The notes below the pieces were generated by a model, which saw only the letters and a list, made by a program, of their open reading frames with translations, was not told where the DNA came from and searched no databases. A stretch of 16,141 bases of DNA, taken from Bdellovibrionota bacterium FG-2 (GTDB lineage Bacteria > Bdellovibrionota > UBA1018). The stretch is from NCBI GenBank assembly GCA_051382305.1, contig JBBCAV010000313.1, forward strand, positions 1 through 16,141. The letters run 5' to 3'. Below, piece after piece: positions 421 through 16,141 of this stretch. Within the stretch, counting starts at the first letter, position 1. Each line of letters begins with the position of its first letter. Both the position numbers and the translations under genes were made by a program.

Positions 421-1434
421 ATGGAACAAAACAGCTTCACATCAACCGAAATTCGACGCATTTTCCGACTCGACGAAAAACTTACCGCGCGTCAAACTCT
501 TTTTAACGCGGAATCGCGCGACGAGATCCCACGGTCAACCCGCATGGCTCGCGGTAAAACTCAGGTGAGGCAATGGTCGATTGACCAGCTTCCAGATATT
601 GGAAAGCGGTTTGGGTTTCTCAGCAAGCCAACCACCCAGAAGGCGGTCTGCATCTTCACCCAAAAGGGGGGCACTCTCAAGTCAACCCTCACCTACACCT
701 TCGCACGCGCTGCGGCCATCAATGGCATCAAGACTGTTGTTGTGGGTCTAGATATTCAAGCATCAATCACCAACTTAATGTTGCCTGTTATGGTCGAAAG
801 CCTTACGGAACTTTCCGCAGTGCGAAACCGTCCTGGCTTGTTTCATATTTTTTATGAAGGGGCTGAACTCGCAGATGTCATTCAAAAAACCGACCTTCCT
901 ACTCTTGACGTAATCCCGGAAACCGCATCCCTGGCTATGTTGGCAAAGATGATTCCGGCCAACGGGTCAAAACAAAACCCTTACACTCTTTTCAAAGATA
1001 AACTTCTTCCTCTTTTGGCTGGGTATGATCTGGTTATTTTTGATAATGCACCCAATTGGTCGCCCCTTGTGGAAAACGCTCTAACTGCGGCCCAATCTGT
1101 CATAGCACCAGTTGCTTGCGACGTCGGAACATACCAGGTGCTCGACAACAATCTAGCGGCGCTTAATGAGTTTCAGGCCGCGTTTAAGATTGAGTGGGAC
1201 AACTTTATCATGGTCCCAACTCTGCTTGAAAAGTCCAAGCTGTCCCAACAAATCTATGCAGCCTATGTTGCAAATCATGCTGATGCCGTTCTTCCTGTGC
1301 CAATTCGCCGCGCAGTGATCGGTCAAGAGTCCAGCGCACTTAATCGTTCGGTGCTCGAATACGACCCGGCCTCAGATTTGGCTCAGGACTATTTCGAGCT
1401 GATGAAGGCCCTTTGGAAGAAAGTTGCGGGTTAA
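421..1434 (+). CDS. parA: ParA/Soj-family partition ATPase with N-terminal HTH-like extension (type Ia-like)
   Basis: Deviant Walker A QKGGTLKS, A' motif GLDIQASIT, Walker B YDLVIFDNAP, and a typical C-terminus (SVLEYDPASDLAQDY). About 70 aa precede the ATPase domain. Confidence 0.9.
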   Translation: MEQNSFTSTEIRRIFRLDEKLTARQTLFNAESRDEIPRSTRMARGKTQVRQWSIDQLPDIGKRFGFLSKPTTQKAVCIFTQKGGTLKSTLTYTFARAAAINGIKTVVVGLDIQASITNLMLPVMVESLTELSAVRNRPGLFHIFYEGAELADVIQKTDLPTLDVIPETASLAMLAKMIPANGSKQNPYTLFKDKLLPLLAGYDLVIFDNAPNWSPLVENALTAAQSVIAPVACDVGTYQVLDNNLAALNEFQAAFKIEWDNFIMVPTLLEKSKLSQQIYAAYVANHADAVLPVPIRRAVIGQESSALNRSVLEYDPASDLAQDYFELMKALWKKVAG

Positions 1435-1439
1435 TTCCA

Positions 1440-2894
1440 ATGGCCCTGCCCACAAACATTTTCATTGGCAAAGCGAAAGCTTCAACACCTCAAACCAAGA
1501 AACAATTTAGTACCCACAAACCATGGGACCAGCCGGAATCATCCCTTGTAAACGCATCTAATGGCATAGGCACCACGCAACAGACAGGGCCAGAGCCTTT
1601 GACCCATATCCTGATTGCGCCAGCTCAAGCCCCAATCCCGGTCAAAACTGAAGCACAGCCAGAGATTACCCCCAAGACAAACTTGGAACAAAGTCAGAAC
1701 AAAGTTGGAACAATCTTAGAACAAAGTCAGAACAGGCCGCCATTAAACTTGGAACAAAGTCAGAACAAAGTTGGAACAACCGATCCAAGTATCATTTCAC
1801 CTTTGGCAGAAAGTCAGAACAAAGTTAGATCACAACTTAGAACAGAAGTTGGAACAATCTTAGAACAAAGTCAGAACAAAGTTGGAACAAATGCGCCATT
1901 TTCATCCGTTGTAGGACTTCAACGGCGGATCATTCTTTTTATCTTTGAATCAACAAAAGTTTCCCGCGACAAAGCAACCTCCCCGATCGCGATTCAAAAC
2001 CTTGCTGTAACTTGCAAAACCACTGCAATGGCCGCGCAAGTTACGATTCGCCGTCTTGAGAAAAAAGGGTTTATTCGTCGTGTGGAGTTCAAAGATGGTC
2101 GTGGTGGTTGGTCGCGTTATGAGCTTTCGGGGGCGGCATTCCAGGAGCTTCTACATTTCGAAAGTCAGAACAAAGTTGGAACAATCTTAGAACAAAGTCA
2201 GAACAAAGTTGGATCACAACTTAGAACAGAACTTAGAACAAGCCCCTCTAGTAGTAGTAGTTTTCTAATTAGAGAAGATTTTAAAACTACTACTACTAGC
2301 GAACCCGATTTGCGCAAAGACGACCCGACCAAACTTCCTCCTGAATGGGAACAAGTTAACTGCATCCCCTTGGCTGACTATGGCTTTGGTGAATCCCAGC
2401 TGTCGCAAATTGTGCGTGACAAGTTACTCACTCCCGAGATGGTTCAGGATTCTATCTTCGCCTTTGCCTTTGACCTCCGAGTAAACGCCAAGGAGAAAGA
2501 GGTGAGGGGAGCACCGCTAAACTACTTCATGGGAATATTACGCAAGGGCTTTGCGTATGCACGACCGGCGAATTATGAGACGCCCCAAGAAGCAGCTCGG
2601 CGTAAGCGTTTGGAACTCCTCCAACGTGAAGAGTCCCAAAGACAAGCAGAAGAACAGCAACTTTTAGAGTTAGAGTTTTCGAGTTGGAAGAGGGGACAAT
2701 CCGTCGCTGAAATTGTCGCACAATTACCTGAGCACGCACGCAGACCAGGACCAGTTCAAGACTCAGCATTGAAAAACCATTTTGTAGAAAACATGTGGCC
2801 GGAGCTTCAAGCTTCTCAAAGCGATGTTGATCCCAGTGAGAGGGAGAAGATCAAAGCAACGATTGCTCAATCGTTTGGGGAGGCGAGGGGATGA
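1440..2894 (+). CDS. Putative replication initiator (Rep) with central winged-HTH and intragenic iteron-like repeats
   Basis: Lies directly downstream of parA; ATG at 1440 is preferred over TTG at 1413. The wHTH-like segment (IQNLAVTCKTTAMAAQVTIRRLEKKGFIRRVEFKDGRGGWSRYEL) is flanked by DNA repeat arrays. The C-terminal PLNYFMGILRKG resembles initiator C-terminal helices. The function is inferred. Confidence 0.65.
   Translation: MALPTNIFIGKAKASTPQTKKQFSTHKPWDQPESSLVNASNGIGTTQQTGPEPLTHILIAPAQAPIPVKTEAQPEITPKTNLEQSQNKVGTILEQSQNRPPLNLEQSQNKVGTTDPSIISPLAESQNKVRSQLRTEVGTILEQSQNKVGTNAPFSSVVGLQRRIILFIFESTKVSRDKATSPIAIQNLAVTCKTTAMAAQVTIRRLEKKGFIRRVEFKDGRGGWSRYELSGAAFQELLHFESQNKVGTILEQSQNKVGSQLRTELRTSPSSSSSFLIREDFKTTTTSEPDLRKDDPTKLPPEWEQVNCIPLADYGFGESQLSQIVRDKLLTPEMVQDSIFAFAFDLRVNAKEKEVRGAPLNYFMGILRKGFAYARPANYETPQEAARRKRLELLQREESQRQAEEQQLLELEFSSWKRGQSVAEIVAQLPEHARRPGPVQDSALKNHFVENMWPELQASQSDVDPSEREKIKATIAQSFGEARG
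1680..1889 (+). repeat. Iteron-like arrays 1-3: 15 copies of an 11-bp unit (AAGTCAGAACA / AAGTTGGAACA / ATCTTAGAACA / AACTTGGAACA variants)
   Basis: Counted by eye: 5 units at 1680-1734, 3 at 1746-1778 and 7 at 1811-1889. Most are head-to-tail with an 11-bp period and occasional 1-bp spacers. Confidence 0.9.
2162..2240 (+). repeat. Iteron-like array 4: 7 copies of the same 11-bp unit
   Basis: AAGTCAGAACA AAGTTGGAACA ATCTTAGAACA AAGTCAGAACA AAGTTGGATCA c AACTTAGAACA g AACTTAGAACA. Confidence 0.9.
2248..2299. repeat. Perfect 17-bp inverted repeat with 18-bp AT-rich spacer (candidate origin element)
   Basis: CTAGTAGTAGTAGTTTT (2248-2264) and AAAACTACTACTACTAG (2283-2299), immediately after the last iteron-like unit. 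Confidence 0.85.
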
Positions 2895-3355
2895 AACCAC
2901 TTCGTATTTATCTCGATAGCTCAGTGATTGGTGGATGCTATGACGTGGGATTTGATGAAGACTCGCGTCGAGTTATCGCCGGAGTTCATCGAGGTAAGGC
3001 GATTCTCTTAATTAGTGAAGTCGTTGTTCGTGAGATAGGGAAGGCACCGCAAGAAGTTCAGGACGTGCTGGCATCGATATCGCCAACAGCCGTTGAGGTT
3101 GTAACTTTGGATGAAGAGGTTCTTGTTTTGCGGGCGGCTTATCTTGCTGCAAAGATTCTCGGCAAAAAGTGGATTGATGACGCAACCCACGTCGCAGCGG
3201 CGACAGTTGCGCGGGCTGATGCTATTGTTTCGTGGAATTTTCAGCACATCGTTCGACTTGATAAAATGAAAGCGTATAATCAGGTGAATCTAGCAAATGG
3301 ATACGGAATTCTTACTATTGTGACTCCTCGGGAGGTTAATTATGAAAAAGATTAG
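2891..3355 (+). CDS. PIN-domain protein (putative TA toxin/ribonuclease)
   Basis: IYLDSSV at the N-terminus, ISEVVVREI, DDATHVAAA and IVSWNFQHIV give the conserved acidic PIN residues. ATGA overlap with rep. Confidence 0.88.
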   Translation: MKPLRIYLDSSVIGGCYDVGFDEDSRRVIAGVHRGKAILLISEVVVREIGKAPQEVQDVLASISPTAVEVVTLDEEVLVLRAAYLAAKILGKKWIDDATHVAAATVARADAIVSWNFQHIVRLDKMKAYNQVNLANGYGILTIVTPREVNYEKD

Positions 3356-3563
3356 AAAACAACCTAAGAAAGCCTTTGATGCCCTTGCTTTCAAAGCAAA
3401 AACACAGGCTGAGATAGCGCAAGATATTTCTGGGATGAGTAGGGCCGAGGAAATCGAGTATTTCAGAAAAAGCACTTCTCGTGGGCCACTTTCCGGATGG
3501 TGGGCGCGCGTGAAAGATGAACAGGTGATAAAGCGCCGAAAGAAACTCAAAGACGCAGCTTAA
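3342..3563 (+). CDS. Small basic protein, putative antitoxin partner of the upstream PIN protein
   Basis: 73 aa, overlaps the PIN gene end, RBS GGAGG at about 3331. The pattern FDALAFK...GMSRAEEIEYF resembles small proteins often coupled to this type of PIN gene. Confidence 0.6.
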   Translation: MKKIRKQPKKAFDALAFKAKTQAEIAQDISGMSRAEEIEYFRKSTSRGPLSGWWARVKDEQVIKRRKKLKDAA

Positions 3564-3567
3564 TTCG

Positions 3568-3999
3568 ATGATGCTAATAACGTTCTTGGTTTTTAATTTC
3601 ATATCAGGCTCTTCTTGGGCGGAACCGAAGGCTCCGGCGGTACATCCGACATATTATTATGGATCGATGCCCAGTTCCCTCATTGGCGTTATTAAAACGA
3701 TTACGTTTCCAGGGCCACCCAATTACGAAAGCCTTAAAAGGGGCGACAGACCGGAAGCGGAGTATGTTTTATTTTTAGATGAGCCTATTTCTGTTTTGCC
3801 ATTAAAAGAAGACAAGGAATATTTTCATGATCCAGCCTTGAATCAAAGGAAGATTGAGTTGGTGTTTTTTTCTGAACATAGCGTGAAGGTAATTGAAGGC
3901 CGAAAAGTTCGCGTGACCGGGACATTCTTTTCTGCACATACGGGACACCACCATACAGACGTGTTGCTGGAAGTAGAAAAAATTGAGGTTGTAAAATGA
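3568..3999 (+). CDS. Exported protein, DUF4431-like
   Basis: Signal peptide (..SGSSWA|EP). The motifs TFPGPPNYES..GD..E and GRKVRVTGTFFSAHTGHHHTDVLL resemble DUF4431. Confidence 0.7.
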   Translation: MMLITFLVFNFISGSSWAEPKAPAVHPTYYYGSMPSSLIGVIKTITFPGPPNYESLKRGDRPEAEYVLFLDEPISVLPLKEDKEYFHDPALNQRKIELVFFSEHSVKVIEGRKVRVTGTFFSAHTGHHHTDVLLEVEKIEVVK

Positions 4000-4682
4000 G
4001 CTCACCATTTATCGGGATCAAGGAACAAAACGTACTCCGCATTACCTATTTTAGGGCAGATGGCTCAAGCAGTACGTTTATAGGCGGTACTCGGACGTGG
4101 AGGAACCAAAATCCAGGCAATATTGTGGCAAGGGGGCCATTTGCAAAGGCGCACGGAGCGATAGGGCGAGCGGGTGGTTTTGCGGTTTTTCCCAGTTATG
4201 AAGTCGGACGAGCGGCTATTTTTAGCCTGATGGGGCTTCAAAAATATCAAGACAACACGCTTGCCGCCACGATTGGGGAATACGCTCCTGAAAAGGACGG
4301 AAATAATCCCGAAAGATACAGGAAGTTGGTTCATAAATGGACTGGCTTAGATCTAAAACGGAAAGTGAAAGACCTATCAAAAAAGGAACTTGAGTGTTTT
4401 GTGAATGCTATCGAACGAATGGAGGGGTATCGCGCTGGAAAGATAGTGGAAGATGCCTCTGCGACAAAAAAGGGGAATATCTCCGCAGTACAGAAGGACG
4501 ATAAGGGAATTATTGTTGCCTATTACGTAGTCGGAATGGGGTGGTTGGCAAAAGGAGCGGCGATAGCTCTCGCCTCAAAAGGAAAAATTGACGCTGTGGT
4601 GGCAACATCTAGGAGTGGGTCACTTTATCTGCGCACGCGACCAGATCAAACGGGGGCGAATAATTTGGCTGCAATGGGATAA
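3996..4682 (+). CDS. Lysozyme-like (RNxNPGNI) putative cell-wall hydrolase with C-terminal DUF3892-like domain
   Basis: WRNQNPGNI...FAVFPSYEVGRAA...YAPEKDGNNPERY...AIERMEGY matches phage-type muramidase-like domains. The C-terminal LYLRTRPDQTGANNL resembles DUF3892. ATGA overlap with the upstream gene. Confidence 0.65.
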   Translation: MSSPFIGIKEQNVLRITYFRADGSSSTFIGGTRTWRNQNPGNIVARGPFAKAHGAIGRAGGFAVFPSYEVGRAAIFSLMGLQKYQDNTLAATIGEYAPEKDGNNPERYRKLVHKWTGLDLKRKVKDLSKKELECFVNAIERMEGYRAGKIVEDASATKKGNISAVQKDDKGIIVAYYVVGMGWLAKGAAIALASKGKIDAVVATSRSGSLYLRTRPDQTGANNLAAMG

Positions 4683-4767
4683 ACAGGACACCCGCACCAT
4701 AAGGGGGCGCTGAACAAAAACAGAGGATGTTTTAGCGAGTTTGCGATCATTAAAAGAAAGGAAGTGT

Positions 4768-5016
4768 ATGAAACCACAAGACGAAAATTTGAATGAGTTA
4801 GAGGGTAGAATAACGACTGATACAGCGTTATGCGGTGGCCGTCCATGTATTCGAGGAATGAGGATTCGTGTCTCGGACGTATTAGAGTTGATGGCTTCGG
4901 GATTGAGCGCTCAGCAGGTTCTCGAAGAGCTTCCTAGTCTCACAGAAGAAGACGTGCACGCCTGCCTTGTCTATGCTTCACGAAGAGTAGATCATCCAAC
5001 GGTGCGGGTAGCATGA
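4768..5016 (+). CDS. DUF433-family antitoxin
   Basis: RITTDTALCGGRPCIRGMRIRVSDVLELMASG...PSLTEEDVHACLVYA is the DUF433 signature. ATG 4768 follows AAGGAAG. Confidence 0.92.
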   Translation: MKPQDENLNELEGRITTDTALCGGRPCIRGMRIRVSDVLELMASGLSAQQVLEELPSLTEEDVHACLVYASRRVDHPTVRVA

Positions 5017-5144
5017 TTTTTTGGGTCGACGAGCAGATATCTCCGGATCAAACAGAGACAACCCAACTTCTCAAAGTAATTTTGATTCCAGTGAGTGGGA
5101 GCAAAGCAACGCTTGATCATTCGTTTGGAGAGGTTCAAGGATGA
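5013..5144 (+). pseudogene. Truncated DUF5615-type PIN toxin remnant
   Basis: ATGA-coupled to DUF433. It begins MIFWVDEQISP, the usual N-terminus of the DUF433-partner PIN family, then loses similarity and stops after 43 codons. Confidence 0.65.
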
Positions 5145-5485
5145 CGAATCGTAAAATCGCAGCTGTGATTACCGACGCCTTGGGTGACCGAGTGGTAGTT
5201 GGTGTAAAAGAACTCGATCACTCTATTGAGGGACACTTTGAAGCAATTCCAAAGGACCTCATTCTGGAACTTCTTGAAAAAGTTTTAAGAGATCCCTCTG
5301 AAGTTTATCGAGATGATCGAAAAAAAGAGCAAATTTTTAATTTTTTCTACAGGCTCGATAAAAGTCAGCAGTTCATAGTTGCGGTTATCAAAGTCACATC
5401 AGAAGGCGCCTTTTTTTCAAGCATGTATCCAACCGGAAAGGGTGTCCGGAATGCACACAAAAACTACAAGAAGGTAAAGTTATGA
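5141..5485 (+). CDS. Putative BECR-fold (PBECR2/RelE-like) ribonuclease toxin
   Basis: HSIEGH...EKVLRDPSEVY...FFYR...FIVAVIK...AFFSSMY fits the pattern of BECR nucleases. It is coupled to a downstream small gene. Confidence 0.6.
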   Translation: MTNRKIAAVITDALGDRVVVGVKELDHSIEGHFEAIPKDLILELLEKVLRDPSEVYRDDRKKEQIFNFFYRLDKSQQFIVAVIKVTSEGAFFSSMYPTGKGVRNAHKNYKKVKL

Positions 5486-5799
5486 AAAAACCAAAGATAT
5501 TTTTCAATCCAATTGCGGGCAGCAGCATCTTGTCGATTACCTGGTTCCCTGGACCGTTAGGTCCAGCAGTAGAAGCAAATAATGGGATTGGCGTTGGTTT
5601 TTTTGCGCACAACGGGGATCTTTTAAGCGTCATGTTTGACGATGTGAATGAGAAACAAGATCACCAAGTGCTTGAATTTGATCACTACCGAGTTGAGGTG
5701 TCCGTCAATAAAGGAAAAATTTCGCACTCTCTCATTCCTCTGGATGTGCCAAAGAAAATCGTTCGCTCATCAAAGAAACGAACTAAAAAAGCCGCATGA
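5482..5799 (+). CDS. Putative antitoxin, DUF2283-like
   Basis: KIFFNPIAGSSILSITWF...GVGFFAHNGDLLSVMFDD resembles the DUF2283 pattern (Y-D...L-I...D..G.++G+). ATGA overlaps on both sides. Confidence 0.5.
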   Translation: MKKPKIFFNPIAGSSILSITWFPGPLGPAVEANNGIGVGFFAHNGDLLSVMFDDVNEKQDHQVLEFDHYRVEVSVNKGKISHSLIPLDVPKKIVRSSKKRTKKAA

Positions 5800-6419
5800 G
5801 GGTTGCGACCTATTCGCGTGTGAGCACCACAAAGCGCGATCAGAAACCTGAGATTCAAGTCCAAGAGCTTCGGCGCTATTGCAAGGCGCGAGGGTTTAAA
5901 GTCGTTCATGAGATCACTGACCGTGCTCGCGGCGGAACCGATGACCGCCCAGGACTAAAACAGCTTCTTCAACTCGTCCGTGCGAGGGAAGTGGACGCCG
6001 TTATAGTTGTAAAAATGGACCGCCTTTTTCGCTCCCTCAAACACTTGGTTAATACGCTTTCAGAATTCGAAGCCCTGGGGGTTAAGTTCATCGCGACTCG
6101 CGACCAAGTGGATCTCACCACCCCCGCCGGCAGGCTTTTCATGCAAATTCTGGGAAGCCTTGGAGAGTTTGAGCGAGAGCTAATCCGTGAGCGGATTATG
6201 CTGGGTCTTGAGTATGCGAAAAGCTGCGGCAAAAAACTCGGGCGTCCTAAGAAAAACGATTACGAAGCGGTTCAAAAGTTACGAACTCAGGGCAAGAGCT
6301 ACCAGCAGATTGAAAGGGCGTTAAAGCTTTCTTCCGGCTCTGTTTGGCGCGCAATTCAGGCAACCCCCAAAAAACGGCTTCCTAAAAAGCCCCAAGACGC
6401 ACGATCAGCGAACCCGTAA
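5796..6419 (+). CDS. Serine recombinase (resolvase/invertase family) with C-terminal HTH
   Basis: YSRVST catalytic serine motif, DRPGL, KMDRLFRS, TPAGRLFMQILGSLGEFERELIRERI and LGRP followed by an HTH. Confidence 0.96.
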   Translation: MRVATYSRVSTTKRDQKPEIQVQELRRYCKARGFKVVHEITDRARGGTDDRPGLKQLLQLVRAREVDAVIVVKMDRLFRSLKHLVNTLSEFEALGVKFIATRDQVDLTTPAGRLFMQILGSLGEFERELIRERIMLGLEYAKSCGKKLGRPKKNDYEAVQKLRTQGKSYQQIERALKLSSGSVWRAIQATPKKRLPKKPQDARSANP

Positions 6420-6455
6420 GGGGTAGGGGTACCCGCAAATCCTATCAAAAAAGCG

Positions 6456-6498
6456 AAACCCCAGATCATCGCTATTCCCGATGAATCTGGGGTTTTTT
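6456..6498. terminator. Intrinsic terminator between the convergent recombinase and vapC genes
   Basis: Hairpin AAACCCCAGAT-CATCG...CGATG-AATCTGGGGTTT followed by a T-run, with an A-run upstream, so it may act in both directions. Confidence 0.7.
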
Positions 6499-6553
6499 AA
6501 ACTCAGAAGTGCCCACCCCGAAATCAAACCGGTTACCAATCTGATGAAATTAT

Positions 6554-6937
6554 TTAATGGGAACCGTGGGAAAGTTTTATGCCTGGCACCCGTTCAAAGT
6601 GCTTCGTGTTTCGGGTAATTAGAACACCATCGCGCTCCAAGCAAATGCCAGCAATCAGAGAGTCGGCCATACCAATGGTAGCGTTTCTTGATTCAAGCTC
6701 TCGGCGCACTTTAGCAGAGCGTCTGGCGCTATCGCTTTCAAGTGGGATAATAATTAGTGCCGATAATAGAGTTTCGACGGCGGCTATCTGTTGATTTGAT
6801 TTTGCACCCGCCCAAAGTTCGAATGCTGAAATAGCGGTGGTATGTAGTCCCCCTGTTTTGATCTCGTATGCAATGCGATCTGCCATGCCCTTGCCTCGGA
6901 GGAAATCAATGAGTACATCAGTATCTGCGATAATCAT
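6554..6937 (-). CDS. vapC: VapC PIN-domain toxin
   Basis: MIIADTDVLIDFLR, AISAFELWAG, DSLIAGICL and LITRNTKHFERVPGI are canonical VapC motifs. Confidence 0.95.
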   Translation of the reverse strand: MIIADTDVLIDFLRGKGMADRIAYEIKTGGLHTTAISAFELWAGAKSNQQIAAVETLLSALIIIPLESDSARRSAKVRRELESRNATIGMADSLIAGICLERDGVLITRNTKHFERVPGIKLSHGSH

Positions 6938-7173
6938 CGCCAGTTACTCCTAATCTCCTGGGTTCTTTCTTCAAACTCATCGGCCATCTTTCCGTGAAAT
7001 GCTCCTTTAAGTCCAAGTGCCGCATCAATTAGATGCAGTTTTTTAGCCTCGTGTTGGAGATATTCGTGGAGCGCCTCTTGGACAATTTGAGAAAATCCCT
7101 TCATACCGCGTTTGGCAGCTAAACGGAGCAGCTCAGATCGTTGTTCTTCGGTGAGTTCAATGGTCGTTCTCAT
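6934..7173 (-). CDS. vapB: VapB-type (RHH/CopG-like) antitoxin
   Basis: MRTTIELTEEQRSELLRLAAKRG..FSQIVQEAL has an RHH pattern, and the gene overlaps vapC (ATGA). ATG at 7173 is chosen because the longer ORF extension runs through the promoter. Confidence 0.85.
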   Translation of the reverse strand: MRTTIELTEEQRSELLRLAAKRGMKGFSQIVQEALHEYLQHEAKKLHLIDAALGLKGAFHGKMADEFEERTQEIRSNWR

Positions 7174-7179
7174 AACAGT

Positions 7180-7208
7180 ACAATAACATGCATGCATGTG
7201 CATGTCAA
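7180..7208 (-). promoter_or_regulatory. Sigma70-type promoter of vapBC with palindromic operator in the spacer
   Basis: Minus strand: TTGACA (7208-7203), 17 bp, TATTGT (7185-7180). The spacer contains the palindrome ACATGCATGCATGT (7186-7199). Confidence 0.75.
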
Positions 7209-7372
7209 GTGGTACCCCACAATCAAGTGATTACGGGGTGCATGAAAACGGCACTAAGGAGTCATGTGAATTCAATGGGTTGGTTGGGGCCGGCTGAGAG
7301 GGATTTCGGGGTAGGGGACCTGCAAAGTAGGGCACACCCCGAAATCAACTGGTTGTGGGGTAGCTGAGCTGC

Positions 7373-8029
7373 TTATTGATGCTTCATTTTAATCTGAAGC
7401 ATCTTGAGATATTCCTGAGACACCTTTAATTTCGCAGCCGGTTCGTCTTTACAGAGTTTTTCAAGTTTAACTGCATTGAGGTCTTTCATAAAATCTTCTT
7501 TATCGACTAAACAGGTGAGTCCATTCTTTTCGTTTCTGCCTTCTTCTATGGGTGTAAATAGAAACTGATTCCATAAATTTGAAAAGGTCCCATCTGGGTT
7601 TTTGTCATCAGCACCAAGAAACAGGCGATGATCCTCTTTTGACCACTCCCTCAACGTAAATACGATTTCACGACTCACTGGTTCGACAGGCTTATTTAGT
7701 GTGTCGGTCATCAGCCCACATGAAAGCATGTCCCAACCCTTAAAGCTCACCTTGAACTTACGTGAAACTGGAGATTGTGCTCTACCGGGTAGCTCTGAAA
7801 TTTTTAGATCAGAAATGATCGCCCAACTCTTTGTTGCAAGATTTCCTAAACCGGGGACATTGGCCCAACCCAGCTTTTTGAACGCCTCCTGATCACAGTG
7901 TCTTTGCGCTGAAATGACGTCTTGCAGAGATGGGACTTCCTGGGCGAATGAACTCCCTATAAATAATGCAATCCCCATGAATACCCAGGATGCTGTACTT
8001 GAGTTAAAAGTTACTCTGAGTCGGCCCAT
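7373..8029 (-). CDS. Hypothetical exported protein (possible partner/immunity of the NlpC/P60 protein)
   Basis: Signal-peptide-like segment WVFMGIALFIGSSFA|QE, four Cys residues, and overlap with the end of the upstream gene. The start is uncertain (8044 or 8029). Confidence 0.6.
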   Translation of the reverse strand: MGRLRVTFNSSTASWVFMGIALFIGSSFAQEVPSLQDVISAQRHCDQEAFKKLGWANVPGLGNLATKSWAIISDLKISELPGRAQSPVSRKFKVSFKGWDMLSCGLMTDTLNKPVEPVSREIVFTLREWSKEDHRLFLGADDKNPDGTFSNLWNQFLFTPIEEGRNEKNGLTCLVDKEDFMKDLNAVKLEKLCKDEPAAKLKVSQEYLKMLQIKMKHQ

Positions 8030-9144
8030 TGATAAAACCTCCATTTATTGCCAAATAGCTTTGCTTTCAATTCAATTACAGAACTTTTAAAATCTGGATC
8101 ATCCGGGGGAAGCTCAGCAAAACCCTTGCGGGTTGTTGCGCTTATCTCTAGCGGATTTCCTGCGTCGTCCGTGCCGGTATAGATGCCTATGTGATTACTC
8201 GTGGTTGTGTGATCATCTGCCTTCAAATGAACGATCAAATCCCCTGCCTTCGCTTGTTCGAGCGAAATTTCTCGAAATTTGTCACTGGCAGCCAGTTCCG
8301 CGACGGTCATATTTTTGGAATCAATCCCTGCCGTTTGATATTGATAATAGACGAGACCACTGCAGTCGAAACTAGAGGGGCCAAGTCGTTCATCCTGTGA
8401 GTATCGAATCTTTGTGCCCGGATCGGTCATGCTTCGCAATGATGCGACAATCGCAGTCCGTATCGCCGAAGTTAATCGGATAACTTTTTTGATCTCTGCC
8501 TTTAGTTCAGACCACAGATATTTGAAAACGCGTACAGTGATCGGAATTTCAGAGGAAAGCGCTTCCGCCATGGCCCTGATTTGCGCGAGGCCAAACTCAG
8601 GCGTATTTTCGGGGCGACAATAGATCCGCGATTCTTGCGGACCCACAATTACTCCCACAGTTTGATCAATGATTGTGCCAACAGCCATTTCCCCAAATGC
8701 GGGGCCAGTAAAGGAGACTAAATAGTGATCTCCGTTTGGCGTGGGAATTGAGGCGGCACTGCAACCGTTAAAATTAAAAGAAAGCTGGCTAGCGGAGCCG
8801 CTAATTGATTCGTTACTAGGTGTCAAATCCTGAAATCGAATGCGAAATGAGTAAGAACCAGAGGGGACGTCTTGGATCCATATCACGGGCCATTCCCATG
8901 TTTCACCAAGGCGAAGTTGGTCAAGAGTCTGAAGGCCCGAATAGACCGGCTTGTTATCGACCCAGAGATTGAGTTTTCCAACCATGAAATCAGCTCGAAA
9001 GAAGATGCTTCCGGCAAATGAAGTCGTCTCAGCCATAAAGGCGAGTGTGACAAGCACAAATAGAGACCGGGCAAATCCAATAAAATTGGCATCAAAGCGG
9101 CTCATGACTCGGGCGGTCATACCACCGCCCGGCAGGGGTTTCAA
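8011..9144 (-). CDS. Exported protein with C-terminal NlpC/P60 (C40) cysteine peptidase domain
   Basis: YSQ..RLGPSSFDCSGLVYY catalytic Cys, AGDLIV, NHIGIYTG catalytic His. There is an N-terminal hydrophobic signal and a beta-rich domain. The true start may be a later ATG (9120 or 9104). Confidence 0.85.
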   Translation of the reverse strand: MKPLPGGGMTARVMSRFDANFIGFARSLFVLVTLAFMAETTSFAGSIFFRADFMVGKLNLWVDNKPVYSGLQTLDQLRLGETWEWPVIWIQDVPSGSYSFRIRFQDLTPSNESISGSASQLSFNFNGCSAASIPTPNGDHYLVSFTGPAFGEMAVGTIIDQTVGVIVGPQESRIYCRPENTPEFGLAQIRAMAEALSSEIPITVRVFKYLWSELKAEIKKVIRLTSAIRTAIVASLRSMTDPGTKIRYSQDERLGPSSFDCSGLVYYQYQTAGIDSKNMTVAELAASDKFREISLEQAKAGDLIVHLKADDHTTTSNHIGIYTGTDDAGNPLEISATTRKGFAELPPDDPDFKSSVIELKAKLFGNKWRFYQWADSE

Positions 9145-10134: not shown

Positions 10135-10477
10135 ACGAACGGATAAGAGAATCATAGCGCCAGGCAAAGCTTGGATAAGGAGGATTGATTGGATACATCA
10201 TGAAACTTTATATTTTGTCCCAGCTGGTGTGAGTCCAGCCTGATCAAAGCCTAGCAGGCAGGTCAGTAGCGAGTCTTGCTGGGTGCCGAGTAATCGTCAC
10301 TCTGAAGCGTAGACAGCGAGAGCGCGGGTTGTGAGGGTTCAGCTCCGAAATCTATGACATCGTGGAAGCCAACGTCTTTGTTTCGACGGAAAGCAGTAAC
10401 CGATACTCCCGATATCGCGAGGGGGTGGAGGAAGACCGGAGTTTCGGAAGATTTCAAGGAAGATGTCGCATCGTTTT

Positions 10478-11557
10478 TCAAGCGGCTTGATTTCTTAACT
10501 TTTCAATTTCCTTTTTTGTCTCCTTTCCGGGGTTGAGACGGACTTCTTCGATCATGGACCAATCTCTCGTTTTGCCTGACCACCGACTCGGATTTGCGAG
10601 CTTTGCCTTTTCGTAAACGGCGTGTCGGTTATTCAATATTGCGACATCTTTGCCTTCGTGGCGTGACTGTGGAGTCACAAACCGGATGCCACTGTGCAAG
10701 TGCTCGGTGTTGTACCAGGTTACAAATTTTTCTACCCAAGTTCGTGCTTCTTCCAGACTTGCAAAAACCCCATCCGGATATGATGGGCGATACTTCAACG
10801 TTTTGAATAATGATTCCGAAAAGGCATTGTCATTGGAAACTGAGGGTCGGCTAAATGACGGAGCAACGTGTAGCTTTTGCAGTGTCGCGAGCATTGTGGC
10901 CCCCTTCATGGGGCCGCCATTGTCTGAATGCAACGTCAGTTGATCCTCAGTAACCCCCTGTTCTTGGCAAGCCCTTGCGATGAGCTTTGCCGAGTGCTCA
11001 GCGGACTCTACCTCCTCAACGGCCCAACCCACAATGTAACGGCTGTAAACGTCCATCACGAGGTACAGATAATAGAACGAACCCCTGATTGCGAACCTCA
11101 AATACGTGATGTCCCAGCACCACACGATATTCGGACTCGCCGCGATCAAATCTTTCGGTCGCTGTCTCTCGCGAGGCTTGCTCTTAGATCGATGACTCAG
11201 AAGATTCTCACCCTTTAAAACACGATAAAAGCTGCTTTCTGATGCCAAATACACCCCAGAATCAGCCAGTTTTGCTACTATTTTCCACGGGCAAAGGTCC
11301 TGATAGAGTGGAGAGTTTGAGATCTCGATGATCATTTTTTTTTCCGCCTCTGTCAGGCTGTGTGGTGGCGACGTCAGAGGCCCCTCTCGCATGTCTCCCT
11401 GTTCTGGATTTTTCTCCCAGCGTTCCAGCGTCCTCAGGCTGAGTCCCAGAAGGTGGCAAGAGACTGCGCGGCCCGCTCCATTATCTTCTGCCTCGCGAAC
11501 GAGTTCCATACACTGCTTTCGATCCTCAATCGTCACTCGTTCTCCCCGGTTCCCCAA
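10478..11557 (-). CDS. IS3-family transposase OrfB (DDE/rve integrase core), probably expressed as an OrfAB fusion
   Basis: WCWDITYL, DVYSRYIVGW, LHSDNGGPM, DNAFSESLFKTLK and WYNTEHLHSGI. Confidence 0.95.
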   Translation of the reverse strand: MGNRGERVTIEDRKQCMELVREAEDNGAGRAVSCHLLGLSLRTLERWEKNPEQGDMREGPLTSPPHSLTEAEKKMIIEISNSPLYQDLCPWKIVAKLADSGVYLASESSFYRVLKGENLLSHRSKSKPRERQRPKDLIAASPNIVWCWDITYLRFAIRGSFYYLYLVMDVYSRYIVGWAVEEVESAEHSAKLIARACQEQGVTEDQLTLHSDNGGPMKGATMLATLQKLHVAPSFSRPSVSNDNAFSESLFKTLKYRPSYPDGVFASLEEARTWVEKFVTWYNTEHLHSGIRFVTPQSRHEGKDVAILNNRHAVYEKAKLANPSRWSGKTRDWSMIEEVRLNPGKETKKEIEKLRNQAA

Positions 11558-12030
11558 AGTAAGTTCGCTTTTTTTTTGAGTACCAAAAGTGCTGCTGTCT
11601 CAGCTAATGCTTTGTCCTTGCGGTTAAGGTCGCGCTCAAGTTCTCTTATCTTTTTCTTATCTTCAGATCGCTCAGCACGCTCTTGCGCTGTGAGTTTTTT
11701 CTCGACCTCGAGGCCCGCCGTCATACTCTTCTTCCATGCCACCACATGGTCCGAATGAAGCCCTTCACGACGAAGAAACTCCCCTCGCTGATCCTCTGAA
11801 AGCCCCTCATAGGCAATTACAGCATTCAACTTTTCGGTGGCACTCCAATCCTGGGGACGTCGCTCTGTTTTCTTCATGTTTACGACTGTACCATAACGTC
11901 TCAGCCACTTATAAACCGATGGAGAAGGAACCCCCATCTCTTCGCAAATCAACTCAACTGACCTTGAGCCGCGTGAAAGAATCTTTTGAACTGCTGACTT
12001 TTTGAACTCTTCTGAATAGGTCTGACGCAT
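11533..12030 (-). CDS. IS3-family transposase OrfA
   Basis: YSEEFKKSAV...SVYKW HTH and a coiled-coil ending LVLKKKA. Confidence 0.92.
   Translation of the reverse strand: MRQTYSEEFKKSAVQKILSRGSRSVELICEEMGVPSPSVYKWLRRYGTVVNMKKTERRPQDWSATEKLNAVIAYEGLSEDQRGEFLRREGLHSDHVVAWKKSMTAGLEVEKKLTAQERAERSEDKKKIRELERDLNRKDKALAETAALLVLKKKANLLWGTGENE
11568..11577 (-). promoter_or_regulatory. -1 programmed frameshift slippery site (A9G) near the OrfA/OrfB overlap
   Basis: Minus strand CTC-AAAAAAAAA-G near the end of orfA, the canonical IS3 location. Confidence 0.8.
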
Positions 12031-12334
12031 TTTCGATGTCCTTTTGCCCCGTTGTTCTTAACAATCTCGGTGCGACATCTTCTCTGCCATAGGGGGGTTT
12101 TAGCCAACGGCAAGTTCTCAAAGGGGATGACCAGGAACCTGGGAAGCCCAATCATTCTGGTTGCGAAAACATGCCACGGGCTTGCCCGGGAAGGCACGTC
12201 AGGCAGTAGGGGGAAGCAAGGGAAACCGTAGCCCCTCCGACGATGAATGGGTCTCTTACGAATCCATAGTATCGATGAAGCTGGGACACCGAATCTGAAA
12301 TGACCGGGACCCAGTGGAGAGAAGGGATGAACAA

Positions 12335-13139
12335 ATGAACGAAACGAATGGGAGAAACAGGGGCGGTGCGCAGACGCCAGAATCCCTGTCAACGAAACTC
12401 AATCGTCTAACTGAAACGGCGAGAAAAGATCCCGAGTTTCAGTTCCGAAACATAGCGCACCTGATCTCAGTAGAAATGCTGATCTGGTCGTTCCAACAGC
12501 TTCGCATGAGTGCAGCAGCTGGTGTGGACGGGGTCACGGCTAAAGATTACGAAAAGAATCTTCGAGCCAACATCGCGAATCTGCATCAACAGCTTGTGGA
12601 AGGACGCTACCGCGCCCAACCTCTGCGGAGGGTGTATATCGAAAAAGAAGACGGCAAGAAAAGACCTCTTTCGATTCCGGCGTTAGACGACAAGATCGTC
12701 CAGCGTGCAGCAACCGAGTTGCTGAGCAGAATCTATGAGAATGACTTTCTGCCCTCATCCTACGGGTATCGCCCTAATCGCAGCGCCCATGATGCCTTGG
12801 ACGCGATCCGAGCAAACATCACACTGGGAAAGGCAAACTATGTGCTGGATGCGGATATCAGCGACTACTTCGGCAGCATTGTCCGAAGCCAGTTAATGAC
12901 GATGCTCCAGAAAAGGATCGTGGACAAACACCTGCTGGCACTAATTGGGAAATGGCTAAACGTGGGGGTCATCGAAGACGGGCGACTGCTCATGTCTGAG
13001 AATGGAACCTACCAAGGCTCAGTCATCAGTCCTGTGCTAGCGAATCTCTACCTGCACGAGGTACTCGATCTTTGGTTTGAAAAGGAAGTAAGGCCGCGAA
13101 TGAGAGGAGAGGCGCTGCTTTATCGCTACGCTGATGACC
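12335..13139 (+). CDS. ltrA: Outer-intron RT/maturase, exon 1 (RT domains 0-5 up to YADD)
   Basis: AAGVDGVT, YRAQPLRRVYIEK, RPLSIPALDDKIVQ, SYGYRPNRSAHDAL, DADISDYF, GTYQGSVISPVLANLYLH, YRYADD. The start is uncertain (GTG 12314 or ATG 12335). Confidence 0.9.
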
Positions 13140-15039
13140 GTGCGTCACGAAACGCTGTGGAGGTAGCTTAAAATGTAAGTGCAATTATGTTGAAGCAACC
13201 GAAACAGCGGTGCTGTGTGCAAAATGAGGGTAGGCCCCTCGGAACCGCCTTGCAGGAGGAGGTTTCAAACCACCGTAAGCTGCATTGGTCAAAAGCCTTT
13301 GTGGTGAGCGTTACGGGAAAAGGTGCAGAACAACTGCATCAGGTGAGAGTCAGAGAGACGAACGAAAGTAAACCACTGAATACATGATCGAAAGCGTAGT
13401 AAAGACATCAAAACCGAGGGGGTGTCGTTAACTCGGGATCAGTTTGGAGAGAGCCTGATGATTGTCCAAGCGGTGTCCGGCATTGAGGTGGCGTGAAGCT
13501 GATTCAGGTTTGTGCATGGAACGTGAGAACCTAGAGTTTTGATGAAAAGGGAGAAATCCAAGCGGAAGACCCGTTAGGATCTGAGTACCGATGCAAAACT
13601 CAGGGACGGATTGGCCCGTAGTAGTGATGAAGTTCCCGTAATGGGAATGGAGCGAAGGGGTCGAATCATTCCGTTTTATTGATCTGTCAACCCAAGCAAT
13701 TGGGGAGGAGCTTATGGATAAAACAAAACCATATTGTATTTCAAAACAGCTGGTAATGGATGCTTTTGCCCGAGTGAAAGCCAACCGGGGAGCTGCAGGA
13801 ATCGATGATGTGACGATCGAGGAGTTTGAGAAGGATTTGAAAAACAATCTTTACAAGATCTGGAATCGGCTCTCGTCGGGGACCTACTTCCCTCCGGCTG
13901 TGAAAGCAGTGGCCATACCGAAAAGCAATGGAGGAACCAGAATACTGGGAATTCCGACAGTGCCGGATCGGGTGGCACAGACAGTGATCAAGATGCAGCT
14001 GGAGCCCTTGGTGGAGCCCAAATTCCACCCAGACTCTTACGGGTATCGGCCAGGAAAATCTGCACTGGGTGCAGTGGGAATGGCCAGAGAAAGGTGCTGG
14101 AGATATGACTGGGTCATTGACTACGATATCAAGGGATTCTTTGATAACTTAGATCACGAGCTAGTTCTGAAGGCAGTGAGACATCACACGGACTCAAAGT
14201 GGATTCATCTCTACGTGGAAAGGTGGCTAAAAGCCCCGCTCCAGAAGGAAGATGGAAGCGCGGTCCCAAGGGACCGAGGCACCCCACAAGGAGGCGTGAT
14301 CAGTCCGCTGCTTGCAAATATTTTCATGCACCATACTTTTGATGACTGGATGAAGCGTTGCTTTCCAAGTGTTCCATTCGAGAGATATGCAGATGATGGA
14401 CTTGTACACTGCACATCGTATGAGCAAGCGCAAAAGATCTTGGAGGCGATGAAGAAAAGACTGCAGGAATGTGGACTTGAAATTCATCCTGACAAGACAC
14501 GAATTGTGTATTGCAAAGACGTTGATCGTAGGAAGGCTCATGAAAATGAGAAGTTCGATTTCCTAGGTTTTACGTTTAGACCCAGGCTATCGAAGAACAA
14601 GAGGGGCAAACACTTTGTGAATTTTACGCCCGCCATCAGTCAAAAAGCAGCCAAAGCGATCCGTGAAGAGATCCGAAAGTGGAAAATCCATAATCGGAGC
14701 GATAAACAGATCAATGACCTTGCCAGAATGTTCAATGCACAGGTGCAGGGCTGGATCAATTATTATGGGGCCTACTATAAGTCAGCCCTATACCCGATCT
14801 TGCGGGAAATTGAGACAGATCTGATTCTCTGGGCAAAGAGGAAATACAAGAGATTTAAGGGCCATCATACTAAGGCGATCCATTGGTTGGGACGAATTGC
14901 GCGTCGCGAGCCAAGGCTATTTGCTCATTGGCGTCTTGGTCTCACATCTCCGGTTGGAAAGATGGGAGCCGTATGAGTCGAGAGGCTCAAGTACGGTTCT
15001 ATGAGAGCGGAGGGGTGAGATCCCCCTCCGCCACTCGCC
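13140..15039 (+). mobile_element. Inner group II intron (bacterial class D-like), 1,900 nt, apparently intact
   Basis: Begins GTGCG at 13140. Canonical D5 GAGCCGTATGAGTCGAGAGGCTCAAGTACGGTTC (14966-14999), and D6 ending CCACTCGCC. Excision restores the host frame GAT GAC C|TA ATC (YADD-LIATF). Confidence 0.93.
13714..14976 (+). CDS. ltrA: Inner-intron RT/maturase (no endonuclease domain)
   Basis: 420 aa with RILGIPTVPDRVAQ, GTPQGGVISPLLANIF, RYADD, FDFLGF and domain X (GWINYYG). RBS GGAGGAG. Confidence 0.96.
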   Translation: MDKTKPYCISKQLVMDAFARVKANRGAAGIDDVTIEEFEKDLKNNLYKIWNRLSSGTYFPPAVKAVAIPKSNGGTRILGIPTVPDRVAQTVIKMQLEPLVEPKFHPDSYGYRPGKSALGAVGMARERCWRYDWVIDYDIKGFFDNLDHELVLKAVRHHTDSKWIHLYVERWLKAPLQKEDGSAVPRDRGTPQGGVISPLLANIFMHHTFDDWMKRCFPSVPFERYADDGLVHCTSYEQAQKILEAMKKRLQECGLEIHPDKTRIVYCKDVDRRKAHENEKFDFLGFTFRPRLSKNKRGKHFVNFTPAISQKAAKAIREEIRKWKIHNRSDKQINDLARMFNAQVQGWINYYGAYYKSALYPILREIETDLILWAKRKYKRFKGHHTKAIHWLGRIARREPRLFAHWRLGLTSPVGKMGAV

Positions 15040-15617
15040 TAATCGCGACTTTCCAATTTAAAGAAGATGCAGAGCGCTTTATGCAAGTTCTGATAAAGCG
15101 GTTTGAGAAGTTCGGGCTTAAACTCCATCCGGAGAAAACTAAGCTCATCGAGTTTGGCAGAACGGCATGGACGAAAAGCAAAAAGACCGGCATCAAACCG
15201 CACACGTTCAACTTCCTGGGGCTCACGCATTACTGCGGGACGACCCGAAAAGGAAAGTTTAGCGTGATGGTCAAAACAATAGCAAAGAGGCTGGCGAGGG
15301 GGCTCAAGCGAGTTAGGGATTTGTGCCGAAATCAAAGGAACAAAGACTTGCTCGCGCAATATCAGCGGCTACGATCGGTTTTACACGGCCATTACGCATA
15401 CTACGGACGACGGTCCAACTCCCGAAGCCTAGCCATTTTCTTCGAAGGTGTGAGCAGAATCTGGAAGAAATGGCTAAGCCGAAGAAGTCACAACGGATAC
15501 GTTACGTGGGAACGGATGGAAAAGATCCTCCAACGATATCCTCTGCCCAAGCCAAGAATTGTTCACGGAGCATTAGGAACTCGAAGTCAAATCCCGCTGT
15601 TCGGGGAGTTTGTTTGA
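15040..15617 (+). CDS. ltrA: Outer-intron RT/maturase, exon 2 (RT 6-7 and domain X)
   Basis: FGLKLHPEKTKLIEFGR, TFNFLGLTH and LHGHYAYYG. Joined to 12335-13139 it gives 1,383 nt (460 aa plus stop) in one frame. Confidence 0.9.
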
Positions 15618-15900
15618 AGAACCGTATGCATTAACGGTGCACGTACGGGTCAGTGAGGGGCCAAGGGGAGCGATCCTCTTGGCCTACTCGGAAACCCCGT
15701 TTTTTCTCTCCGGCAATCCTAGGGAACCCCGGGGGTTGGCCTCTTGGGGGTTATGCGAACCTGGTTTTCACCTGAAATTCGGCCTTACTGAGACTCACTA
15801 AATCAAAAAGGGTCCGGGAACCGGACATTAGACAGGGGGCGAGGGCGTACTTTCGCCTGCGAGGACTATAATTTGAAGGTTAGTCCCGATGGGTGGACGG

Positions 15901-16140
15901 TCAGTAATCAGAAAAAAGGTCCATTTGCGGAGGTGCCCTTGCCGGATGAAACTTCGGCGGCTCCACCGGAAGCGCAAGGTGAGTTAGGATCTTCTCAACC
16001 ACAGCGCGCTCGACGATGGTTGCAATGAACGTTAAAGCCCCGCCGCAGTCGGGGCAACACTCTAAGTCAATATTGTACACCCTTTTAAGCAGCTCTGACC
16101 AACGCAGGCGTCTGGGGTCCTGGGGATGACACGGAACACT
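15901..16140 (-). CDS. C-terminal part of an IS91/ISCR-like rolling-circle transposase (runs off the window; not in the ORF track)
   Basis: Manual translation gives ...RRLRWSELLKRVYNIDLECCPDCGGALTFIATIVERAVVEKILTHLALPVEPPKFHPARAPPQMDLFSDY*. The W..LLKRV..ID...C..CGG...KIL.HL...PARAPP pattern is characteristic of ISCR-type transposase C-termini. Confidence 0.8.
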   Translation of the reverse strand, partial: SVPCHPQDPRRLRWSELLKRVYNIDLECCPDCGGALTFIATIVERAVVEKILTHLALPVEPPKFHPARAPPQMDLFSDY

Positions 16141-16141
16141 C

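Follow-up and report, generated by a model that had tools for sequence, protein, structure and literature searches.

A group II intron of Bdellovibrionota bacterium FG-2, probably of a known lineage that homes into the active-site codons of reverse transcriptase genes

The window analysed here is a stretch of 16,141 nucleotides from Bdellovibrionota bacterium FG-2 (assembly GCA_051382305.1). It is the entire contig JBBCAV010000313.1 of a fragmented genome assembly (433 contigs, 85% complete), and it carries one group II intron nested in the reverse transcriptase (RT) gene of another. We put at about 90% the probability that the inner element is an intact-looking, IIB-like group II intron lacking an endonuclease (En) domain, of a known lineage whose retrohoming is directed at the RT active-site codons of other retroelements. 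The phenomenon itself was described between 2003 and 2008, and the copy in the window is an additional member of the lineage that homes to the codons for Tyr-Ala-Asp-Asp (YADD). The features that carry this reading are as follows:

12314 to 13139, + strand: outer intron-encoded protein (IEP), N-terminal part, with the RT motifs up to YADD (Pfam RVT_1, 1.3e-24, profile positions 1-155 of 205)
13126 to 13139, + strand: target site in the 5' exon, with intron-binding site (IBS) 2 at 13126-13132 (C TAC GC T) and IBS1 at 13133-13139 (GAT GAC C)
13140 to 15039, + strand: inner group II intron, 1900 nt, from GTGCG to CUCGCC (Rfam; 3' end set by homology)
13226 to 13344, + strand: domain I match of the inner intron (Rfam RF01999, 116.3 bits; gathering score 36)
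13393 to 13399, + strand: exon-binding site (EBS) 2, AGCGUAG, pairing with exon positions -8 to -14 (7/7); its conserved core GCGUA reads UAY GC
13414 to 13436, + strand: EBS1 hairpin, stem CCGAG/CUCGG (13414-13418/13432-13436) with a 13-nt loop
13423 to 13429, + strand: EBS1, UGUCGUU; GUCGU pairs with -2 to -6 and U13429 with the G at -7 (6/7)
13485, + strand: candidate EBS3 (G), which would pair with T15040, the first base of the 3' exon (G.U)
13714 to 14976, + strand: inner IEP, 420 aa, RT and maturase (Pfam RVT_1, 9.2e-46; GIIM, 2.4e-13)
14964 to 15039, + strand: domains V and VI of the inner intron (RF00029, 52.8 bits; gathering score 40)
15040 to 15617, + strand: outer IEP, C-terminal part (LIATFQ...; RVT_1 profile positions 159-204), in frame with the N-terminal part after excision

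The features that define a mobile group II intron are all found in the inner element: a GUGYG-type 5' end, domain I and domains V/VI, and an RT-maturase open reading frame (ORF) within domain IV. The frame of the IEP is open, its Pfam domains are full length, and the protein carries an ERYADDG motif of its own. Pfam matched no En domain in the 420 residues, the only extra being a weak RdRP_1 match that overlaps the RT region. Relatives of the IEP with E<=1e-50 number at least 8000 and reach 92% identity, the closest ones lying at 83-92%. The 5' exon ends in CGC TAC GCT GAT GAC C at 13139, and the intron begins with GTGCG at 13140. Precise excision joins GAC C to TA ATC and restores YADD-L-IATFQ (...RYADDLIATFQ...) in frame. 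The target at 13126-13139 runs from the third base of an Arg codon through the Tyr-Ala-Asp-Asp codons to the base that opens the following codon.

EBS2 and EBS1 occupy the terminal loops of two successive hairpins, and the candidate EBS3 lies apart from EBS1. A preliminary description of this DNA had located both guide motifs, and its coordinates are right throughout, including those of AGCGTAG at 13393-13399 as the exact reverse complement of 13126-13132. The six pairs that it drew between GTCGTT (13424-13429) and GATGAC are likewise correct, and correspond to exon positions -2 to -7.

Relatives were gathered by likeness to the inner IEP. They include a second intron of the same family in the FG-2 genome (L002; contig C201, 1390-3266; 65% nucleotide and 56% IEP identity), four genome loci, metagenome loci (the best 80 of 575 confirmed relatives) and named plasmid copies. 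A search of 40 related genomes with the inner IEP at E<=1e-60 gave no match beyond its own genome. The nhmmer alignment had 93 rows, of which 67 were kept for having the EBS region, an anchor and a GTGYG junction (at least 8/11). Rows with fewer than 14 exon bases were then dropped together with L080, whose contig begins inside the intron and gives a wrong junction, leaving 65 copies that have an EBS region together with a 5' junction that can be read. We defined the EBS type of the window's intron by an EBS1 of N-G/A-T-C/T-G-T-T and an EBS2 of GCGTA or a one-base variant, and 47 of the 65 copies have it.

All but one of the copies of this type (46/47) are inserted after [Y/F/H][A/C]-D-D codons plus one base, and the lone exception, L024, comes immediately after the 3' terminus of a second intron copy. 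Of the 18 copies whose EBS motifs differ, none is found at such a site; these occupy other genes. The proposal made from the sequence of the window, that the intron is specialised for homing to the YADD codons, is supported by the tabulated 5' exons and by the diversity of the hosts. The same junction is present in named copies from Sinorhizobium meliloti pSymA, Clostridium pasteurianum pCLOPA01 and a Priestia megaterium plasmid. Eleven plasmid-borne introns have 65-69% nucleotide identity to the inner intron over at least 83% of its length, and of four such regions retrieved, the three whose junctions were read (3/3) all have them at YADD codons; introns of Sinorhizobium plasmids resemble the inner intron in 100 records. 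A soil-metagenome contig that is about 94% identical to the inner intron matches the window's exon over 16 bases only (13124-13139) and is different further upstream, which hints, weakly, at the same intron in another host.

A rival account is that the complementarity arose by chance and that the intron landed ectopically. The match of the 7-mer, taken by itself within the window, agrees with such an account: it occurs 3 times against 0.92 expected, 9 of 200 shuffles reach 3, and the count is thus within chance. Chance is refuted by the 46 of 47 relatives of the same EBS type at the same site and by the position of the motifs in EBS loops, and we hold this explanation to be improbable in the extreme.

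The host genes are varied. Their C-terminal parts are 15-44% identical to the tail of the window's host, the group II maturase domain (GIIM) is found in 17 of 24 host tails, and several host types can be separated by the residues that flank YADD, including members of the inner intron's own family (..FERYADD..VHC). Because the hosts are diverse, a single inherited twintron is excluded. The corresponding account would have all twintrons descend from one ancient nested pair that was co-inherited, the complementarity being a frozen accident and not a homing specificity. It can draw on the fact that the loci are relatives retrieved with one protein query, but the inner introns are much more alike than the host tails, which are of several types, some of the inner intron's own family. 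Furthermore, relatives with other EBS motifs lie in other genes, with the EBS covarying with the exon, and the literature describes a host RT that does not belong to an intron (B.th.I3, PMC2504315). We consider co-inheritance very improbable.

Several of the collected loci have a composite structure. At L026 and L085 (172-2098) the 5' and 3' exon parts come from different RT types, and L024 has two intron copies head to tail. Three intron 5' ends fall within 2.5 kb at L051, two copies are nested at L084, and at L016 one intron interrupts domain I of another. We read L026, L085, L024, L051 and L016 as signs of recombination and repeated nesting among relatives.

The structural setting of the two guide motifs was read from 35 relatives, in which they lie in hairpin terminal loops whose stems are paired in 95.9% of 342 cells. 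When the 3' partners were slid, 24.6-56.5% were paired, and 0 of 500 shuffles reached 95.9%. Of the EBS1 stem's five pairs, four have undergone compensatory change. The hairpin that carries EBS2 in its terminal loop is formed by alignment columns 44-49 and 64-68, and the variation of its stem across relatives is mostly G-C/G.U.

The pairing register comes from the relatives that are not at YADD sites. Fifteen of these 18 show 6/6 pairing between their homologue of the hexamer 13423-13428 and positions -1 to -6 of their own exon, whereas in a permuted control 6/6 pairing occurred in 2.3% of 302 mismatched intron/exon combinations. For this reason we take 13423-13428 (UGUCGU) as the canonical EBS1 hexamer. 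In this register U13423 opposite C13139 at -1 is a true mismatch, and U13429 adds a G.U pair at -7. The last exon base had been left unpaired in the preliminary description as a caveat of its model; it is indeed unpaired, as a real U.C mismatch and not through a gap in the modelling.

A candidate for EBS3 was obtained from an exploratory scan of 360 alignment columns. The column of G13485 was the best, pairing with exon position +1 in 43 of 49 copies (A-T 19, G-C 12, G.T 10 and T-A 2), and this base may be EBS3, the assignment being that of a candidate.

Two further groups of relatives have other targets. L012 (2452) and L013 (1731) have EBS1 motifs GATGGT and GATTGT, respectively, and EBS2 GCAAA, and are inserted after GTT GCC GAC CAT C and GTT GCC GAC GAT C; they are apparently a retargeted variant in which the EBS covaries with a V-A-D-H/D-like site. 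L002 has the EBS1 TGATGT, the exact complement of its exon ACATCA, and splits an IS3-family transposase gene at ..W-S-T-D-I|T-Y.., a site that apparently coincides with the first of the catalytic Asp residues in the DDE motif. It would be a further case in which the family is aimed at a conserved motif of a mobile-element enzyme.

The guide loops tolerate the synonymous variation of their target. Among the 46 copies at the site, GAT and GAC are nearly equal in number at the two Asp codons (24/22 and 22/24), yet all 46 are paired at every position from -2 to -6, because a G of EBS1 faces each position that is C or U. The preliminary description had noted that this wobble G can read both GAT and GAC, and the pair counts agree with it (G-C 24, G.U 18 and A-U 4 at position -2; G.U 24 and G-C 22 at -5). 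Likewise, a G of the EBS2 core stands opposite the third base of the Tyr codon, which is TAT in 22 copies and TAC in 16, and GCGTA stands opposite TATGC in 20 copies and opposite TACGC in 15. At -8, where the EBS1 and EBS2 pairings adjoin, lies the third position of the Ala codon, which is four-fold degenerate (C 21, G 13, T 10, A 2). Position -1, with which the codon after Asp-Asp begins (T 23, G 14, A 5, C 4), pairs in 29 of the 46 copies and is unpaired in 17, so that the mismatch found in the window is nothing unusual in this lineage.

These patterns could be taken a step further, with the guide loops acting as a codon-degenerate probe for an amino-acid motif and the lineage as a general hyperparasite, holding down the number of retroelements that a genome carries. 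With -1 tolerant of mismatches, a single RNA would be able to recognise nearly all spellings of Y-A-D-D. Its targets would then include the lineage's own RT gene, leading to self-invasion and nested stacks, and possibly non-intron RTs such as retron or defence RTs. We offer this extension tentatively and regard it as rather doubtful. The placement of G opposite wobble positions was not found stated in the parts of the literature searched, which exclude Dai and Zimmerly 2003 and supplements, and we make no claim of novelty for it.

In outline, two loops of domain I are complementary to the sense strand of the Arg-Tyr-Ala-Asp-Asp (R-Y-A-D-D) codons: EBS2 reads UAY GC through its GCGUA core, and EBS1, as GUCGU plus U, reads G AY GAY. 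The inner intron is inserted in the RT gene of the outer intron, one base past the second of the two Asp codons, which probably makes the pair a twintron. The ribonucleoprotein of the intron may reverse-splice into single-stranded sense-strand DNA at a replication fork, with the nascent strand then priming cDNA synthesis, as shown for the En-less RmInt1. A fork-dependent pathway is described for RmInt1 (PMC5894124), and an En-less fork pathway has also been argued for the YADD lineage (PMC2504315).

Several observations weigh against the reading of the inner element as a YADD-homing intron. Position -1 of the target is mismatched, as set out above, and the EBS2 stem of the copy in the window has two of its five pairs broken. 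A minimum-free-energy fold of the single sequence 13340-13460 did not recover the hairpins and gave another helix (-20.2 kcal/mol, z = 0.93). The structure adopted here is that of the covarying hairpins in the 35 relatives. The 46 copies at the site are kin chosen by likeness to the query, and such counts are not numbers of independent events. Finally, matching sites are empty in the same genome. Two intact group II introns (L094, C19:1-2501; L095, C317:41685-45368), with open RT frames of 485 and 446 aa, respectively, and Rfam domain V/VI matches, have empty YADD sites that match EBS1 and EBS2 of the window's intron at 14/14 positions (C19) and 12/14 positions (C317), compared with 13/14 at the occupied site. 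The unoccupied sites in the inner IEP gene and in the IEP gene of L002 match at 12/14 each.

Given these empty sites, the intron is not saturating its targets here. Either the copy is immobile in this genome, or other needs, such as those for replication strand or expression, are unmet, or occupied alleles were lost in assembly. The first of these options amounts to a relic: the lineage homes to YADD codons, but the copy in the window no longer moves and persists inside a dead host intron. We regard this as a serious possibility that falls short of being probable. In its favour are the U.C mismatch at -1 and the two broken EBS2-stem pairs, the breakage of the host intron by an insertion sequence (IS) element, and the fact that the assembly holds one copy of the inner intron despite the empty 14/14 site on C19 and three 12/14 sites. 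It is opposed by the open frame and full-length Pfam domains of the IEP, and by scores for domain V/VI and domain I well over the Rfam thresholds. In addition, a base unpaired at -1 in 17 of 46 relatives makes the mismatch common in the lineage, and an assembly as fragmented as this one (433 contigs, 85% complete) can lose repeated copies. The reading of the inner element as an intact-looking homing intron is the one that we retain.

The empty sites in the two intact introns also fit the earlier suggestion that the intron could hit other YADD RTs, as does the published case of B.th.I3 in a retron-like RT gene (PMC2504315).

Outside the inner intron, the contig encodes the remainder of the outer intron, an IS3-family element and a backbone on the left (421-9144) that resembles that of a plasmid or mobile element:

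421 to 1434: ParA-type ATPase, in the backbone
5141 to 5485: PBECR2 nuclease-like ORF, in the backbone
5796 to 6419: resolvase, in the backbone
6554 to 6937: PIN-domain ORF, in the backbone, with a small upstream ORF at 6934-7203
8011 to 9144: NlpC/P60 hydrolase, in the backbone
10227 to 10458, + strand: 5' part of the outer group II intron (GTGTG start and domain I; RF02005, 115.5 bits at 10230-10451; start at 10227 set by eye)
10459 to 12082, - strand: IS3-family insertion sequence that breaks the outer intron RNA (HTH_Tnp_1 and rve domains)
10478 to 11557, - strand: orfB of the IS3-family element
11533 to 12030, - strand: orfA of the IS3-family element
15620 to 15652, + strand: domain V-like hairpin of the outer intron, identified by eye only, with AAC in place of the expected AGC triad

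Three mobile elements are thus stacked in the contig. The IS3-family element is bounded by 15-nt terminal inverted repeats (10459-10473 and 12068-12082; 93% complementary). The outer intron has domain I (RF02005) on its 5' side, and on its 3' side only the degenerate-looking hairpin found by eye; Rfam gave no domain V/VI match at E<=1 in 15500-16141. Its ribozyme looks degenerate. Because of the IS3-family insertion and the AAC-bearing domain V-like hairpin without an Rfam match, the outer intron is almost certainly dead, judging from its sequence. Splicing of the inner intron would therefore rescue nothing and would matter only for the inner intron itself. The 7-mer AGCGTAG recurs at 10306-10312, in domain I of the outer intron and within the segment that matches the RF02005 consensus; this recurrence is a coincidence, and not an exon-binding site for the YADD target.

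A side observation concerns the IEP ORF of the inner intron. Metagenome contigs that are at least 85% alike on both flanks skip about 1215-1300 bases of the window (joints 13661-14962 and 13729-14945), a segment that corresponds to this ORF. They are probably ORF-less derivatives of the family, and may come from other source organisms.

The strategy suggested by these findings is one in which a selfish RNA secures a perpetual target that cannot be lost, given that active-site codons cannot change without killing the host retroelement, while synonymous changes of the target are absorbed by G-C/G.U pairing. For annotation, RT genes that are split at YADD should be read as twintrons and not as pseudogenes. 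What is added here comprises the per-position pairing statistics, a record of how many and how varied the hosts are, the finding that the intron's own family is invaded as well, and the matching sites that stand empty in the FG-2 genome. The value of these results is confirmatory and quantitative, the principle being published. The novelty implied in the preliminary description does not hold up, in that YADD specificity is already in print (PMC2504315).

The lineage is known from B.th.I3, M.a.I5, UA.I3 and P.l.I2, which Tourasse and Kolstø 2008 (PMC2504315) describe as related En-less introns with the RYADD codons as IBS1 and IBS2. These are 58-67% identical, with a B-like structure and no En (PMC2504315), and the same paper cites Dai and Zimmerly 2003 for this specificity. 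B.th.I3, from Bacillus thuringiensis israelensis ATCC 35646, is alike in lacking En and in having RT active-site codons as its IBS1 and IBS2 (PMC2504315). Its target is AGGTATGCTGATGACT, which has the same layout as CGCTACGCTGATGACC in the window, and both introns are inserted one base after the second Asp codon. It differs in its host, a retron-like RT and not a group II intron, and we liken it to the window's intron by the published description only.

M.a.I5, which we take to belong to class D, is from Methanosarcina acetivorans, UA.I3 is from an uncultured archaeon and P.l.I2 is from Photorhabdus luminescens, so that their hosts are archaea and an enterobacterium, unlike that of the window. 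Repeated nested homing is reported for these introns (PMC2504315, PMC4424553), and in our collection nesting is seen at L051 and L084. More generally, the repeated homing of introns into introns is treated by Zimmerly and Semper 2015 (PMC4424553) and Mohr et al. 2010 (PMC2882425). The twintrons TeI3/TeI4 of Thermosynechococcus elongatus (PMC2882425) differ from the one in the window, as insertion there is not at the active site but between the first and the second ATG of the IEP ORF. Their inner introns are ORF-less and of a different class from the window's intron (PMC2882425).

RmInt1 of Sinorhizobium meliloti (IIB3 or class D; PMC5894124) shares with the window's intron an En-less IEP of about 420 aa and a target in another mobile element that is read by EBS1, EBS2 and EBS3 (a candidate only in the window's intron). 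That target is the transposase gene of ISRm2011-2 (PMC5894124), unlike the RT gene in the window. By analogy, RmInt1 is likely the mechanistic model for the intron described here.

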